Shown here: in pieces, positions 6,034-11,527 of the stretch
How the letters are laid out: the number at the start of each line of letters is the position of its first letter
Position numbering within the stretch: the stretch's first letter is position 1
Assembly (NCBI GenBank): GCA_964644845.1
Contig: CAZXXS010000078.1
Coordinates: 3,561 to 67,560 of the forward strand
Direction of reading: 5' to 3'
From: an uncultured Cytophagia bacterium
Lineage (GTDB): Bacteria; Zhuqueibacterota; Zhuqueibacteria; Oleimicrobiales; Geothermoviventaceae
Length of the DNA: 64,000 bases
Made by a program: the position numbers and the translations under genes
Notes under the pieces: model-generated
The model's database searches: none
The model's input: the letters and a program-made list of their open reading frames with translations, nothing else
Told to the model about the DNA's origin: nothing

Positions 6034-6040
6034 GCACCCT

Positions 6041-6064
6041 ACGCCCGGTCTTCCGGGCGTTTTC
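6041..6064 (+). terminator. Rho-independent terminator after the aldo/keto reductase
   Basis: ACGCCCGG-TCTT-CCGGGCGT hairpin followed by TTTT. Confidence 0.75.
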
Positions 6065-6785
6065 TGTTCAAAGTGAGCCTTGAGCCTCCAGACCGCCCCC
6101 GGGCCAAGCAACTTTGAGTTTTCGGCCGATTGGTACCGCCGCGAGAATCCAGCATGCGGTGGACTCGTGCAACGCAAACCGGTAAGGTGCCCACCACGGA
6201 CCGGTTGAAGCCGCGTCAGGATGCTTGTGTAAGGCAGTGCTGGCTTGCTCACCTGCCGTGTCCACCGCTGCTTCAGCGAACGTCGCAGGTCAACCGTGAC
6301 AGCAGTGGATCCAACGCAAACAGCCGACCGAGGGGAGCCCCGAGACGCCGTGAGGGCGAGCTCCCAAGACCGTTCCGGTGGCGCGGACTCGGATCGCAAC
6401 GGGTTTCTGGCTGGTCTTGTCCTGGGGACCGATCTTGAAGATCAAGGCATCCCCTCTTTTCGCGTCGAGACAGAAATCTCGACCTCTCTCAAAGCCGTCC
6501 GGGACTCGATCCGTGGACCCGCGGAGCAGGTCCGCCCCGGGGAAACCACGCGAGTTTCGGCGTAAGGAATCAACCAGACGCACGGCGCGACGTGGAGTCT
6601 TCTTTGAGCTCCGGGGCCGGTGGTCCCGCTTTGCGTACAGACTGATCGACTGGCAACATGCGCTGTGGAGCACTGGGGATTGTTCAGACCAACTCCAGGC
6701 CAAACCGGGGAGCTCGCGAAAGACAAAACGCTTTGTTTGGGGCCCGCTTTTGCGTAAATTTGCCCAGAAAAACCGGAGAGCTGGC

Positions 6786-7778
6786 ATGCAGCAAGTACGC
6801 GTCGGTGTTGTCGGCGTAGGCAAGCTGGGCACCTACCACGTTCAAAACTACCTGAATATTCCGGACGCGCAGCTGGTTGGCACCTGGGACGTTGTCCCCG
6901 AGCGCATGCGCGCGGTTGAAGCGCGCTGGGGTGTGCGGAGCTACCCGTCCCTGCAGGCGCTGCTTGAAGATGTCGAAGCGGTGAGCGTGGCGGTACCGAC
7001 GACGGCGCACCGGGACGTGGCAGCGCAGGCTCTGGCTGCCGGGGTGCACTGCCTCGTGGAAAAGCCGCTGGCGTCGACCTTGGGGGAAGCGGGCGAAATC
7101 GTGCGAACCGCTGCAGACCGGGGCCTGGTACTGCACGTAGGGCATGTGGAACGCTTCAATCCTGCCATTCTTGCGCTCCGTGGAGTAGAGTTGCAACCGC
7201 GTTTCATCGAGTCGCACCGGCTTGCGCCGTTCGACCCGCGGGGTACCGATGTGCCCGTCGTCCTGGACCTGATGATTCACGACATCGACCTGATCCTCAG
7301 TTTGGTAACCTCGCCAGTACGTCGGATTGATGCCCGAGGAGTGGCGGTCGTCTCCGACGACGCCGACATCGCCAACGCCCGCCTGGAGTTCAAAGACGGC
7401 TGCGTGGCCAACGTGACAGCAAGCCGCATTTCCCAGCGGAAGATGCGCAAGCTGCGGCTTTTCCAGCGCAACGCGTACATTTCGGTAGACATGCTCCAGG
7501 GGCTAACTGAGGTTTTTCGTCTCGAAGAACACGAGGCGCCACCCCCAGACAAAGATGCCAGACTGGTTCTCGGACAGATCGACCGGGGCCAGAGGAAGCG
7601 AGCCATTTCGTACGAGCGGTTGGCCGCACCGGAAATCAACGCACTCGAAGCGGAACTCCGCGAGTTCCTGAAAGCTGTGCGTGGAGAGCCAAGTACCGGC
7701 GTAACAGGGGAGGAAGCAAAACGCGCGCTCGAAGTGGCCCTGGAAATCGAGCGGATCGTGCAGGAAACCGCCGTCTGA
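6786..7778 (+). CDS. gnnA: Gfo/Idh/MocA oxidoreductase, likely UDP-GlcNAc 3-dehydrogenase (GnnA-like)
   Basis: GVVGVGKLG Rossmann motif, LVEKP, GHVERFNPA, FIESHRLAPF and DVPVVLDLMIHDIDL; first gene of the lipid A cluster. Start moved to ATG 6786. The gnnA name rests on context. Confidence 0.75.
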   Translation: MQQVRVGVVGVGKLGTYHVQNYLNIPDAQLVGTWDVVPERMRAVEARWGVRSYPSLQALLEDVEAVSVAVPTTAHRDVAAQALAAGVHCLVEKPLASTLGEAGEIVRTAADRGLVLHVGHVERFNPAILALRGVELQPRFIESHRLAPFDPRGTDVPVVLDLMIHDIDLILSLVTSPVRRIDARGVAVVSDDADIANARLEFKDGCVANVTASRISQRKMRKLRLFQRNAYISVDMLQGLTEVFRLEEHEAPPPDKDARLVLGQIDRGQRKRAISYERLAAPEINALEAELREFLKAVRGEPSTGVTGEEAKRALEVALEIERIVQETAV

Positions 7779-7982
7779 GCGGCGGAGCTGGAGCCACCAA
7801 CTTCAAGAGCCACCTTGGGGTGGTCCGCCGGAAAGACGGGCACACCCCGGTTAGCCGCAGAACCGAAATGGAAAGACGGCTTACTCGGCCGGCAACCACG
7901 GGCACCGCTTGAGTCGCGCCAATCCGAGTATGCGAAATGCTCACGTGTCAAGTCGAAAACAAACGCCACTGGAACGGAAGGT

Positions 7983-8567
7983 ATGGCCAAGTTTGACCTT
8001 CGCGAGAAGATCTTCAACAACCGAAGCTACACACCCATTCCCCTCCTGGTTCTTGCCCTCATCCTGGCGAGACCCTCGGTCTGGTCCATTCTCGGGGGTG
8101 TGGGGTTGATGCTTGTCGGCGAGTTTTGGCGGCTCTGGGCAGTCCGCTACGCTGGAGGAGCAACCCGAACAACGTCAGGAGTCGGTGGCGACGAGCTTGT
8201 GACAGCCGGTCCGTACGCGCACCTCCGTAACCCGCTCTACCTGGGGAATCTTTTCAACGCCCTGGGCATTTGCGTGGCCGCCTGGGCGTGGATGCCCTGG
8301 ATGCTCATCGTCTGCCTTGCTTTTTTCACCGTCCAGTACGGACTCATCATCTCGCTTGAGGAGGAGTACCTCCGAGGGCGCTTCGGCGAAGCCTACAGGG
8401 CCTACGCCTCCAGTGTCCCCCGCTTCTTTCCTCGACCTCGCGCGTGGTCTGGCGCAAGTGCCCTGAACCCGCAGCCCCTCCACAGGGCCATTCGCACGGA
8501 GCGGCACACGCTCGGCTCGCTTACACTGATCACGCTGTTGATCCTGCTACGCTGGAAAGTTTTCTGA
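7983..8567 (+). CDS. ICMT/Ste14-family membrane methyltransferase (LmtA-like lipid A phosphate methyltransferase candidate)
   Basis: LVTAGPYAHLRNPLYLGN and EEEYLRGRFGEAYRAYASSVPRF motifs; ends 2 nt before lpxB. Start ATG 7983. Confidence 0.8.
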   Translation: MAKFDLREKIFNNRSYTPIPLLVLALILARPSVWSILGGVGLMLVGEFWRLWAVRYAGGATRTTSGVGGDELVTAGPYAHLRNPLYLGNLFNALGICVAAWAWMPWMLIVCLAFFTVQYGLIISLEEEYLRGRFGEAYRAYASSVPRFFPRPRAWSGASALNPQPLHRAIRTERHTLGSLTLITLLILLRWKVF

Positions 8568-8568
8568 A

Positions 8569-9732
8569 ATGGAACGCACGGTCCTGATCGTCGCTGGCGA
8601 AACGTCCGGCGACCTTCACGCAAGCCGTCTCGTGCGCGAAATGAAACGCCGATCTTCGGGGCTGCGCTTCGTTGGGATCGCCGGCCCCCGGATGCGCGCT
8701 GAAGGGGTTGAGGCGGTGTACAGGGTCGAAGCGCTGTCTTTTCTCGGGTTCGCAGAGGTGCTGCGACACCTTCCCTTCATTCGGCAGGTCTCGCGCCGGA
8801 TGACCCACCTCCTCGACGAACTGCAACCCGAATTGGTGATTTTGGTGGACTACCCCGGCTTCAACCTGCGCTTCGCCAGGCGAGCCAAGGAACGGGACAT
8901 CCCTGTGTTCTACTACATTGCCCCTCAGGTGTGGGCTTGGGGAAGCGGTAGAATCAAGAAGATGGTCGAACGCGTTGACCGCCTGGCGGTCATTCTTCCG
9001 TTTGAAGAGCACCTGTTCCGTCAGTACGGGCTGGATGCACACTTCGTGGGTCACCCACTTCTGGACCTGGCTCACGACGAAACCCCGCGCGAGCTGTTTT
9101 GTGCCCGAGCTGGGGTAAATCCGGACGCCCAACTGATTGGCTTGTTCCCTGGGAGCCGTCGGCAAGAGGTCCAGCGTCACTTGCCCGTGATGCTCGAGCT
9201 CGCTGAGCTAATCGGCGGCCAGCTACCCAACACCCGTTTCGTGGTCGCCCAAGCATCTGGTCTCGGTGAAGGTACGTACACAGCGTCGGTCAGATCCTGG
9301 CCCTCGGGTGTAAAACTGCTTCGGCAGGGGCACTACGCCTTGATGCGGCATGCTTCGGCCCTGGTGGTTGCCTCGGGTACAGCTACACTGGAAGCGGCCA
9401 TCTTCGCCACCCCGTTTGTCGTGGTGTACAAAGTGAATCCCACAACCTGGTTCATCGCAAGACGCCTGGTGAAACTGCCCTACATCGGATTGGTGAACGT
9501 GGTCGCCGGCCGTCGGGTGGTGCCGGAGCTCTTGCAACACGACTTCACCCCCGAGAATCTGGCGCAGACTGTACGAGCGCTGCTTAAAGATGAGGCGTTG
9601 CGAAACCAGATGCGCGCCAACCTTCTCGATGTGCGTCGACAACTCGGGCAACCCGGGGCAGCCGCTCGAGCCGCGGGTCTGGCCCTTGAACTTCTGTCCG
9701 GGGAAAAGGGCTCCGGGACCGCTGGGGTCTGA
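8569..9732 (+). CDS. lpxB: Lipid-A-disaccharide synthase
   Basis: IVAGETSGDLHA, ILVDYPGFNL, YYIAPQVWAWG, FVGHPL, LFPGSRRQEV, VASGTATLE motifs. Confidence 0.97.
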   Translation: MERTVLIVAGETSGDLHASRLVREMKRRSSGLRFVGIAGPRMRAEGVEAVYRVEALSFLGFAEVLRHLPFIRQVSRRMTHLLDELQPELVILVDYPGFNLRFARRAKERDIPVFYYIAPQVWAWGSGRIKKMVERVDRLAVILPFEEHLFRQYGLDAHFVGHPLLDLAHDETPRELFCARAGVNPDAQLIGLFPGSRRQEVQRHLPVMLELAELIGGQLPNTRFVVAQASGLGEGTYTASVRSWPSGVKLLRQGHYALMRHASALVVASGTATLEAAIFATPFVVVYKVNPTTWFIARRLVKLPYIGLVNVVAGRRVVPELLQHDFTPENLAQTVRALLKDEALRNQMRANLLDVRRQLGQPGAAARAAGLALELLSGEKGSGTAGV

Positions 9733-9807
9733 GACAAAAAGCGTTTGTACGAGGATCCCCGCGTTCGGGGTTACGCTCGCATTCGCCAGCACGGAGAGCG
9801 ACATCAG

Positions 9808-10470
9808 GTGAGTAGCGAGAGACGATCCGACCTGTTGTTCACGCTCGGAACGAAGTTCGCGTGGCTGCTTGTTCTCGGCCTTGGGAGATCGGCCCGCATT
9901 CGTTTCGTCGGCAGACAGAACTTGCTGCGTCTCCGCGAGGAGAACCGGCGTTTTATCCTGGCCGTGTGGCACGGGCGACTTCTGCTGCCAGTGTACCTGC
10001 ACCGAAATGAGGGCATTTGCGCCATGGTCAGCCTGCACCGGGACGGCGAGCTCATCGCTCAGACCATCCAGCGACTTGGCTACACAACGGTCCGCGGCAG
10101 CAGTACCCGAGGCGGGCGCGAAGCTTTCAACGAGATGGTGCGGGCTATTCGCGCTGGCGCCAACGCGGCCATCATCCCCGACGGCCCAACTGGCCCACGT
10201 CACCAGCTCAAACCGGGCGTACTTTTCATCGCCCAACAAACGGGCGCTGCCATTCTGCCCCTGACCTTCGCTTGCGACCGTTACATCACGTTCAACAGCT
10301 GGGACCGTTTCACACTGTGGAAACCGTTTGCCAAGTGCGTGGCCGTCTACGGTGACCCGTTCTACGTGCCGCGCACGTGGACCCTCCGTCAGGTACTTCG
10401 GGCCGGGAAAGAGCTGGAACAAAAGATGATTGAACAAGAAGCTTTCGCCGATGCACTTTTTCGAGAGTAA
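9808..10470 (+). CDS. DUF374 / LpxJ-like lipid A late acyltransferase
   Basis: ILAVWHGRLL, MVSLHRDGELIA, TVRGSSTRGG, IIPDGPTGP motifs; lies between lpxB and lpxK. Start GTG 9808 is my estimate. Confidence 0.85.
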   Translation: MSSERRSDLLFTLGTKFAWLLVLGLGRSARIRFVGRQNLLRLREENRRFILAVWHGRLLLPVYLHRNEGICAMVSLHRDGELIAQTIQRLGYTTVRGSSTRGGREAFNEMVRAIRAGANAAIIPDGPTGPRHQLKPGVLFIAQQTGAAILPLTFACDRYITFNSWDRFTLWKPFAKCVAVYGDPFYVPRTWTLRQVLRAGKELEQKMIEQEAFADALFRE

Positions 10471-11527
10471 GCTGCTCGGCTCGCCACTTCTGCCTTTGGC
10501 CTGGCTCTACGGAGGCGTAGTCAGAGCACACTCCGCGCTTTACAGATCCGGCATTTTGAAGCAGCAACGAGTGAACGCTCTGGTCGTTTCAGTGGGGAAC
10601 GTGACGGTGGGCGGGACCGGCAAAACTCCCTTCACCGCGTGGCTTGCACGGGAGCTCGCCAACCGTGGCGTGAACGTTGGGATCGTGAGCCGCGGCTACG
10701 GCAGAAAATCACGCGGCACCGTGGTCGTGTCGAACGGAAAGCAGATTCTTGCCGACGTGTACGAATCCGGCGACGAACCCCAGCTGCTGGCCCTCAAAAC
10801 GCCTGGTGTGCCGGTAATCGCGGACGAGGATCGATCCCGCGGCTGCCGCGAGGCTGAGCGACATTTTGACTGTACAGCCCTTCTCCTCGACGACGCCTTT
10901 CAACACCACCGGTTACACCGAGACGTTGACATCGTACTGGTCAACGCACAGGTCGGGTTTGGCAACGCCTACCTCTTGCCAGCCGGACCTTTACGCGAAC
11001 CACTCCGTGCGCTTCGACGCGCCAGCCAGATCGTCCTGACCCACTGCCACAGCCTGGAACAAGCGCCTGAACTCGTTGCGCAGATTCGACGGCGTTCCAG
11101 TGCCCCCCTGAGTTGCGCCGACTACACGTTCACCGGCCTCATTTCGCCGTCCGGCCGTCGTAAATCCGTCGACTGGCTGCGCGGCAAGCGTGTTGTCGCC
11201 GTGGCAGGCATCGCCAACCCGCACAGTTTTTTTCAAACCCTGACCCGTCTCGAAGCCGTGGTCACCCACACTGCAGCTTTCGTGGACCACCACTGGTACA
11301 CCCGACGCGACGTCGCTCGTGTAAGACGGCTGGTCCGGGAGACCCGTGCGCAGGCCGTCGTCACCACCGAGAAAGACCTGGTGAGGCTCACCCCGCTCCT
11401 CGGTGACGACACGCACGACTGGCTCGCACTCGAAGCGGAGTTGCTACCGAACCCAACTTTCAGGCTAAACTGGAACAATCTGATTGAACAGTGGCAAGAA
11501 GCCTCGCAGATCGCTTCAACCGGTTAG
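10451..11527 (+). CDS. lpxK: Tetraacyldisaccharide 4'-kinase
   Basis: SVGNVTVGGTGKTP P-loop, VSRGYGR, GDEP, LLDDAFQH, LLPAGPLREP, TTEKD motifs. Confidence 0.96.
   Translation: MHFFESKLLGSPLLPLAWLYGGVVRAHSALYRSGILKQQRVNALVVSVGNVTVGGTGKTPFTAWLARELANRGVNVGIVSRGYGRKSRGTVVVSNGKQILADVYESGDEPQLLALKTPGVPVIADEDRSRGCREAERHFDCTALLLDDAFQHHRLHRDVDIVLVNAQVGFGNAYLLPAGPLREPLRALRRASQIVLTHCHSLEQAPELVAQIRRRSSAPLSCADYTFTGLISPSGRRKSVDWLRGKRVVAVAGIANPHSFFQTLTRLEAVVTHTAAFVDHHWYTRRDVARVRRLVRETRAQAVVTTEKDLVRLTPLLGDDTHDWLALEAELLPNPTFRLNWNNLIEQWQEASQIASTG

Follow-up and report, generated by a model that had tools for sequence, protein, structure and literature searches.

A 64-kb stretch of DNA (called the window below), which is part of contig C78 of a 94% complete assembly of 4.6 Mb, was found to carry an operon for lipid A assembly; the bacterium is of the KSB1 type, in the FCB group. 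The operon, at 6786–11527 on the + strand, consists of the co-oriented genes gnnA, a membrane methyltransferase gene, lpxB, a DUF374 (lpxJ) gene and lpxK. The methyltransferase (MT, protein P0001) was assigned to a large, undescribed family of short proteins, which appears to be the closest relative of LmtA, the lipid A Kdo2 1-phosphate O-methyltransferase of Leptospira (Boon Hinckley et al. 2005, cited in PMC10248169). To judge from the sequences, what is new here is this distinct, shorter sister family of LmtA inside lpx operons, and it suggests that methylated lipid A may occur outside Leptospira.

Leptospira is the only genus in which methylation of a lipid A phosphate has been described (PMC10248169, 2023), and the modification is among the explanations discussed for the unusual way in which innate immunity recognizes Leptospira lipid A (PMC10248169). 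In a literature search, no paper on LmtA homologues outside Leptospira was found. We consider it very likely that the MT acts on lipid A or its precursors, and somewhat favor the view that the group it methylates is a lipid A phosphate. A wider proposal falls just short of an even chance in our judgement: lipid A phosphate methylation would not be peculiar to Leptospira but would exist in many, mostly uncultured phyla as a long LmtA type and a short type linked to, and in some cases fused with, LpxB, the latter type would form a unit with LpxB and modify lipid X or the disaccharide-1-phosphate at an early stage, and the two types would have replaced each other repeatedly in KSB1. If the short family does methylate lipid A, environmental diderms, including KSB1 and Latescibacterota, would widely use methylation to cap the charge of their lipid A phosphates as an envelope strategy, with a bearing on cation bridging in the outer membrane, resistance to cationic peptides and the prediction of endotoxin from metagenomes. 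In addition, the small size of the enzyme (190 aa) and its defined partner, LpxB, would make it convenient for investigating how the fold of isoprenylcysteine carboxyl methyltransferases (ICMT) was re-tooled from carboxylate to phosphate methylation.

The methyltransferase and its relation to LmtA

The MT gene (7983–8567, + strand) encodes a membrane protein of 194 aa. Inspection of the Pfam matches showed that the protein passed the gathering thresholds of both PEMT (PF04191, 42.4 bits against 25) and ICMT (PF04140, 27.9 bits against 24), and the public annotations of the short family read isoprenylcysteine carboxyl methyltransferase or Ste14. On TIGR04571, the LmtA model with a cut-off of 325 bits, the MT scored 50.9 bits and other members of the short family scored 54–67 bits. 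LmtA of Leptospira itself (253 aa) scored 425–474 bits; these reference genes were taken from saprophytic Leptospira genomes, which were found by a 16S primer pattern. For the short-family members tested, TIGR04571 was the best model (51–67 bits), ahead of that of the isoprenylcysteine methyltransferase (32–41 bits). That the match to TIGR04571 was merely generic was rejected, since the ICMT paralogue in the window's own genome (C122:18413–18961) gave a flat ∼30 bits on three models alike.

The MT and LmtA shared 31% identity over 156 residues and were reciprocal best matches. The top match of P0001 in six Leptospiraceae genomes was LmtA, and that of LmtA in the window's own genome was P0001, with the C122 protein, the sole paralogue, in second place. 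Alignment of a 43-sequence profile of the P0001 family with the LmtA profile by hhalign gave 99.8% and an E value of 6.7e-29 over 178 columns, pairing residues 5–185 of 194 in the MT with residues 9–198 of 253 in LmtA, and the homology thus extended over the full length of the short protein. It was observed that 27 columns were conserved across the short family, the long LmtA-like family described below and Leptospira LmtA, including F11, R14, S15, Y16, P18, R62 and E173. The RxPxYxGN and EExxL...F motifs, which are the S-adenosylmethionine (SAM)-binding and catalytic motifs of the ICMT fold, were invariant across the 43 short-family members.

The AlphaFold2 model of the MT (mean predicted local distance difference test score of 89.6) showed the ICMT fold, and Foldseek aligned it with Tribolium ICMT (5v7p) at a root-mean-square deviation of 1.8 Å over 117 columns and with Ma-ICMT (4a2n) at a TM-score of 0.57. 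The MT resembled these ICMTs in the fold of the catalytic core and in the SAM-binding motifs; in contrast to the MT, the ICMTs have neither the RSY motif near the N terminus nor the C-terminal helix that bears the conserved Glu. The N-terminal F..RSY.P motif, R62 and the C-terminal Glu (E173) all lay outside the segment that could be aligned with solved ICMTs. ICMTs act on prenylated proteins, a kind of substrate that one would not expect in bacteria. With LmtA, on the other hand, the MT had in common the ICMT/Ste14 fold, the F..RSY.P, RxPLYxGN and EExxL..F motifs and the C-terminal Glu, and both enzymes occur in organisms possessing GnnA.

Nevertheless, the MT was classified not as an LmtA orthologue but as a member of a sister clade, because of its score (51 against 325 bits), its length (194 against 253 aa) and its position in the tree. 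Compared with LmtA, it lacked a segment of ∼18 residues after the first transmembrane helix and the last ∼55 residues. In a quick maximum-likelihood tree the short family formed a clade of its own, with a Shimodaira–Hasegawa-like approximate likelihood ratio test (SH-aLRT) value of 91, and Leptospira LmtA was nested in the long family (SH-aLRT 90). The outgroups of this tree (the own-genome paralogue and two Leptospiraceae paralogues) sat on branches of 5–6 changes per site, where their placement is meaningless and the root is not fixed. The two enzymes also differed in their surroundings, as the short MT was embedded in lpx operons whereas Leptospira lmtA and the long forms of KSB1 were not. 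An earlier reading of this DNA (the original prediction) had set the ICMT-family MT beside LmtA and proposed a phylogeny against LmtA versus phospholipid methyltransferases. The relation proved to be specific to LmtA rather than generic to ICMT or PEMT, the link to lipid A genes was borne out, and the short family came out as the nearest relative of LmtA; identity with LmtA had to be given up, the short family being a separate clade and LmtA nesting within the long family.

As a side observation, five proteins of 410–604 aa (P0255, P0265, P0300, P0325 and P0385) contained two tandem PEMT/ICMT domains of the short type, which represent internal duplications of the MT.

Gene context and distribution of the short and long forms

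Five architectures of the short MT were observed. Sixteen of the 30 top-scoring phylum loci had the order of the window, gnnA-MT-lpxB-DUF374-lpxK. In Latescibacterota the order was bamA-ompH-lpxD-lpxC/fabZ-lpxA-MT, with lpxB not adjacent and neither lpxK nor waaA nearby. The third architecture was a bare gnnA-MT pair to which lpxB was not adjacent, and the fourth, in families f15 and f11, was MT-lpxB(-DUF374-lpxK) without gnnA. In the fifth, an LpxB-like domain was fused N-terminally to the short MT (P0318 and P0355). The operon of P0355 (L198:6001–7848) read lpxD-x-lpxC-fabZ-gnnA-lpxA-lpxB-[LpxB-like::MT]-metallophosphoesterase, where x, a 353-aa gene between lpxD and lpxC that was checked as a gnnB candidate, had no family match and was not a DegT. 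The fusions were considered as read-through artefacts of the KSB1 gene order, which was rejected because the LpxB-like part is N-terminal, the reverse of MT followed by lpxB.

Directly downstream of the MT, lpxB was present in 29 of the 30 best phylum loci (the thirtieth was truncated), whereas gnnA was directly upstream in 19, and MT-lpxB was therefore regarded as the core conserved pair. Since the full order recurred in 16 of the 30 loci and the MT-lpxB adjacency in 29, the five-gene arrangement is judged not to be a chance juxtaposition, and by its gene context the MT is tied to the lipid A pathway.

It might be argued that the MT methylates membrane lipids in general, for instance as a phospholipid N-methyltransferase of the PEMT kind, and is co-expressed with outer-membrane biogenesis genes without acting on lipid A. 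PEMT was indeed the top Pfam match (42 bits), and the public annotations as isoprenylcysteine carboxyl methyltransferase or Ste14 would be compatible with such a role. We regard it as quite improbable, because the genes linked to it were specifically those of lipid A, in five architectures spread over different phyla, the fusion to an LpxB-like domain among them, and phospholipid synthesis genes were not adjacent to the MT; moreover, the similarity to LmtA was full-length and specific, where the generic paralogue of the same genome remained flat. Still less credible, and hardly to be expected in our opinion, is that the MT serves mainly as a membrane anchor or partner of the peripheral LpxB, with methyl transfer being secondary or lost. 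Such a role would agree with the near-universal MT-lpxB adjacency, the translational coupling (a 1-nt spacer in the window) and the LpxB-like::MT fusions, but a pure scaffold would not keep the SAM-binding and catalytic motifs that were invariant in 43 members, and lpxB was not adjacent in Latescibacterota or in the gnnA-MT pairs.

The distribution of the MT was surveyed with the short-family profile in 167 genomes of the phylum. The short form was present in 72 of them (178–311 bits), and another 22 showed only a weaker match of 91–112 bits. Twelve of these 22 were examined (loci L191–L195 and L201–L207, in genomes G024, G035, G083, G085, G088, G099, G104, G107, G118, G149, G150 and G167) and were found to carry a long LmtA-like form of ∼246 aa. 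All twelve scored 127–218 bits on the LmtA profile, four matched TIGR04571 end to end with 187–247 bits, and the proteins of five loci were 35–43% identical to Leptospira LmtA. Only one genome (G083) had both forms. The hypergeometric probability of an overlap of one or fewer was 2.8e-5 when counted by genome and 0.007 when counted by genus, with no correction for phylogeny. Furthermore, the form switched between genera inside six families (f7, f8, f9, f14, f15 and f21). Such a complementary pattern would be expected if the short and long forms were interchangeable ways of fulfilling the same function.

A search with a query from a KSB1-phylum genome returned 5914 proteins of the long family at E ≤ 1e-10. 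Among the best 120 of these 5914 matches, Desulfobacterales, Pseudomonadota, Acidiferrobacterales, Desantisbacteria and Aureabacteria were named, and the family is annotated only as 'isoprenylcysteine carboxylmethyltransferase family'. The long family was similar to the short one in that both occur in the same phylum, share the same conserved columns and are complementary in distribution; it was different in reaching 187–247 bits on TIGR04571, in having Leptospira LmtA nested within it and in not being linked to lpxB. In one genus, a gene for a small PAP2-superfamily protein (L192:8341–8889, in G150; 26.4 bits, just below gathering) adjoined the long form, and a syntenic gene was present in L193. 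The PAP2-like gene and the long LmtA-like gene could be paired as a lipid A phosphatase and a phosphate methyltransferase.

GnnA and the MT were not always found together. Families f12 and f13 possessed GnnA and neither form of the MT. Family f11 (G127 and G128; L188), one genome of which was 100% complete, contained MT-lpxB-DUF374-lpxK and no GnnA at E ≤ 1e-40. By these gene contents GnnA and the MT vary independently, and the combination in the window is one of several states in the phylum. Because f11 carries the MT without GnnA, the MT would not need a 3-amino group, which fits a phosphate acceptor.

The MT could act on lipid A or lipopolysaccharide and yet on another group, namely the 4'-phosphate, the Kdo carboxylate, or a hydroxyl or amine of the backbone. 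This we consider unlikely, although it deserves serious attention: gene linkage indicates the pathway and not the acceptor atom, the short family is a shorter sister clade of LmtA, canonical ICMTs methylate carboxylates and the catalytic core of the MT aligns to them, and lpxK lies in the same operon. However, the tightest partner of the MT was lpxB, the substrates of whose product bear only the 1-phosphate and no Kdo; the Latescibacterota loci have the MT 3' of lpxA and neither lpxK nor waaA in the vicinity; and the complementarity to the long LmtA-like forms suggests the same job for both. As for the 3-amino group, its role as the target is contradicted by the presence of the MT without gnnA in f11, including the 100% complete genome.

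Methylation of the 1-phosphate, which we prefer, could proceed as follows. GnnA would oxidise UDP-GlcNAc at C3 as the first step to UDP-GlcNAc3N, and at least part of the backbone would probably be 2,3-diamino-glucose (GlcN3N) with amide-linked 3-acyl chains. Like LpxB and LpxK, the MT would work on the cytoplasmic side of the inner membrane, where SAM is available, as an active SAM-dependent O-methyltransferase of a lipid A precursor phosphate. Possible acceptors would be lipid X, the disaccharide-1-phosphate and later intermediates, each through its 1-phosphate; since the MT is constantly paired or fused with LpxB, the 1-phosphate from lipid X would be the most likely target. Methylation would cap one negative charge before export, and LpxJ would add a secondary acyl chain alongside two LpxL-type enzymes.

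Several points weigh against this proposal. The MT fails the curated LmtA threshold, and with the last ∼55 residues missing and its place in a sister clade, its substrate or regiochemistry may be different. Acceptors in the ICMT/PEMT superfamily range from carboxylates, amines and thiols to phosphates, and homology therefore leaves the acceptor atom unfixed. The long forms of the phylum are not adjacent to lpx genes, so that the two forms could differ in role, and the probabilities given above for their overlap carry no phylogenetic correction. Concerning the GlcN3N part, no dedicated gnnB was pinned down in the window's own genome.

GnnA and the sugar backbone

The gnnA gene (6786–7778, + strand) encodes a 330-aa protein of the Gfo/Idh/MocA family. 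It matched PF01408 with 105 bits in Pfam, and its top match in NCBIfam was the archaeal UDP-GlcNAc 3-dehydrogenase with 188 bits, under the cut-off of 450. Among solved structures, an end-to-end match of 208 bits was obtained with 7bvj/7bvk, which we take to be GnnA of Acidithiobacillus ferrooxidans, and the runner-up scored 74 bits. The A. ferrooxidans enzyme was reportedly described by Sweet et al. in 2004 and by Manissorn et al. in 2020, the latter study being cited in PMC11446377. The identity to the single counterpart in saprophytic Leptospira genomes was 41% (229 bits), and no other gnnA was found in the own genome at E ≤ 1e-40. Because of the match to the solved GnnA, the similarity to the Leptospira counterpart and its uniqueness in the genome, the dehydrogenase is assigned as the GnnA orthologue, in agreement with the original prediction of a gnnA-like gene. 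GnnA orthologues were present in 147 of the 167 phylum genomes and in 98 of the 105 high-quality ones. The window protein and A. ferrooxidans GnnA are alike in the Gfo/Idh/MocA fold, the end-to-end match and the position of the gene beside lpx genes, and unlike in that the window gnnA has no adjacent gnnB.

As had been stated earlier for the window, gnnB was absent from the 64 kb, and none adjoined lpxA on contig C119. In Leptospira vanthielii (L152), the gnnA orthologue was located directly 3' of hrcA-grpE-dnaK-dnaJ (identified by Pfam) without gnnB beside it. The gnnA loci of a second Leptospira, a Leptospiraceae metagenome-assembled genome (MAG) and Turneriella (L153–L155) showed the same sizes and order of open reading frames (ORFs) as L152, their neighbours being compared by size only. 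Since Leptospira gnnA also stands without an adjacent gnnB, its absence from the window carries no weight.

The search for gnnB that the original prediction had called for covered the own genome, which contained seven DegT genes, two of which (C12:99027–100154 and C4:6746–7846) belonged to the sugar-3-aminotransferase class, with QdtB, DesV and WbpE as the best PDB matches. Both were located inside glycan or amino-sugar clusters, no GnnB-specific NCBIfam match was obtained for either candidate, and a dedicated gnnB was not recovered. DegT genes of the 3-aminotransferase class were present in 131 of the 167 phylum genomes, a count that leaves the two paralogues unseparated. In small genomes of the phylum with a single such DegT, the gene adjoined a homologue of a 472-aa membrane protein of the C12 cluster, which is again a glycan context.

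The C12 cluster (C12:96527–103038) comprised, in order, the 472-aa membrane protein, a glycosyltransferase, the WbpE-like 3-aminotransferase, a hexapeptide acetyltransferase, a second Gfo/Idh/MocA dehydrogenase and a glycosyltransferase. By its sequence, the 472-aa protein is probably a phosphoglycosyl-transferase. The cluster, which has WbpB-like, WbpD-like and WbpE-like genes next to glycosyltransferases, is likely a 2,3-diacetamido-sugar pathway. The aminotransferase encoded there might also serve as GnnB, and it is plausible that one such enzyme is shared between the glycan and GlcN3N pathways. On C4 (C4:1164–8879), the other DegT gene of this class was found beside an NAD-dependent epimerase/dehydratase and a 623-aa ArnT-like membrane glycosyltransferase, and a GT2 (ArnC-like) gene was present ∼5 kb further along the contig. 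In its layout the region is similar to arn-type pathways, by which a lipid receives an amino sugar, and it possibly represents a further modification of lipid A or lipopolysaccharide.

Whether GlcN3N reaches lipid A depends on the aminotransferase and on LpxA. The own genome contained a single LpxA (C119:8547–9299), and L. interrogans LpxA (3hsq) ranked fourth among its matches to solved structures, a ranking that does not discriminate specificity. We know of no sequence signature for LpxA selectivity towards UDP-GlcNAc3N. An ordinary glucosamine backbone, with GnnA feeding a surface glycan or having no working aminotransferase partner for lipid A, is a minority possibility that we take into account. 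It would explain why gnnB adjoined lpx genes nowhere and why the conserved 3-aminotransferase of the phylum lay beside a probable phosphoglycosyl-transferase, in a glycan cluster with its own Gfo/Idh/MocA gene, and the LpxA ranking gives no support to either backbone. Nevertheless, GnnA was kept in 98 of the 105 high-quality genomes and was part of lpx operons in the window as well as in other phyla (L198, with fabZ-gnnA-lpxA-lpxB). Leptospira makes GlcN3N lipid A and yet has no gnnB beside gnnA, and the 3-aminotransferase of the glycan cluster could supply UDP-GlcNAc3N to both pathways. Lipid A with GlcN3N is already known in the FCB group from Capnocytophaga canimorsus (PMC3342949). A GlcN3N backbone is plausible for the bacterium studied here.

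Acyltransferases, remaining genes and layout of the locus

All five gene identities and their coordinates, as originally proposed, were confirmed by Pfam and NCBIfam. The closest named homologues came from candidate division KSB1 first, and then from Latescibacterota and Bacteroidetes MAGs. lpxB, encoding lipid-A-disaccharide synthase (8569–9732, + strand, 387 aa), scored 315 bits on TIGR00215 (cut-off 190) and 336 bits on PF02684; lpxK, encoding tetraacyldisaccharide 4'-kinase (10430–11527, + strand), scored 239 bits on TIGR00682 (cut-off 92) and 317 bits on PF02606. Both thus passed the equivalog cut-off.

The DUF374 gene (9745–10470, + strand, ORF of 241 aa) encodes a late acyltransferase that matched PF04028 with 100.6 bits and carries VWHG, HRDG, PDGP and SWDR. 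In Rickettsia typhi LpxJ, the residues W60/H61, D86, D132 and W172/D173 were found by mutagenesis to be essential (PMC6148475). As all six were matched, in addition to PF04028, the protein is assigned to the LpxJ family. It is similar to the LpxJ proteins of Helicobacter, Campylobacter, Wolinella and Rickettsia (PMC6148475) in its domain, its essential residues and the position of its gene among lpx genes; unlike them, it coexists with two LpxL-family acyltransferase genes, located on C32 and C35, and is not a simple one-for-one replacement of LpxM. The suggestion of LpxJ-type acylation was hence correct as to the family and its essential residues, but the acylation would not be purely of this type. 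The remainder of the Raetz pathway was present as bamA-ompH-lpxD-lpxC/fabZ-lpxA on C119 and waaA on C86. LpxK makes the 4'-phosphate. Because of this phosphate and the two LpxL-type acyltransferases, the lipid A need not resemble that of Leptospira.

The stop codon of the MT ends at 8567 and the ATG of lpxB begins at 8569, leaving a spacer of one base, so that the distance of 2 nt given in the original prediction was essentially right. The ORF of the MT is open from a TTG at 7815 (7815–8567), but the true start is almost certainly the ATG at 7983, which gives 194 aa, because the homologues are all ∼190 aa and begin there. The start of lpxK is likely the ATG at 10451, as this yields a 20-nt overlap with the DUF374 gene, as in relatives. 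Relatives of the DUF374 protein are 219–224 aa long compared with the 241-aa ORF here, and its true start may be slightly downstream of 9745.

Two long spacers, 6034–6785 (752 nt, 5' of gnnA) and 7779–7982 (204 nt, between gnnA and the MT), contained no credible ORF and gave no Rfam match, and neither had a second copy in the own genome or was conserved in genomes of the same family. A riboswitch or structured leader before the MT was considered and rejected, since the 204-nt spacer had no Rfam match and a folding z-score of 0.19. In G083, which belongs to the same family, the gap between the aldo-keto reductase gene and gnnA was 30 nt, and the gnnA-MT gaps in relatives were mostly ∼5–190 nt. 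By this comparison the 752-nt and 204-nt spacers are lineage-specific. A terminator-like hairpin at 6041–6060 (+ strand), 3' of the aldo-keto reductase gene and with an 8-pair stem containing 7 G-C pairs followed by a T run, is the 5' boundary of the lipid A unit.

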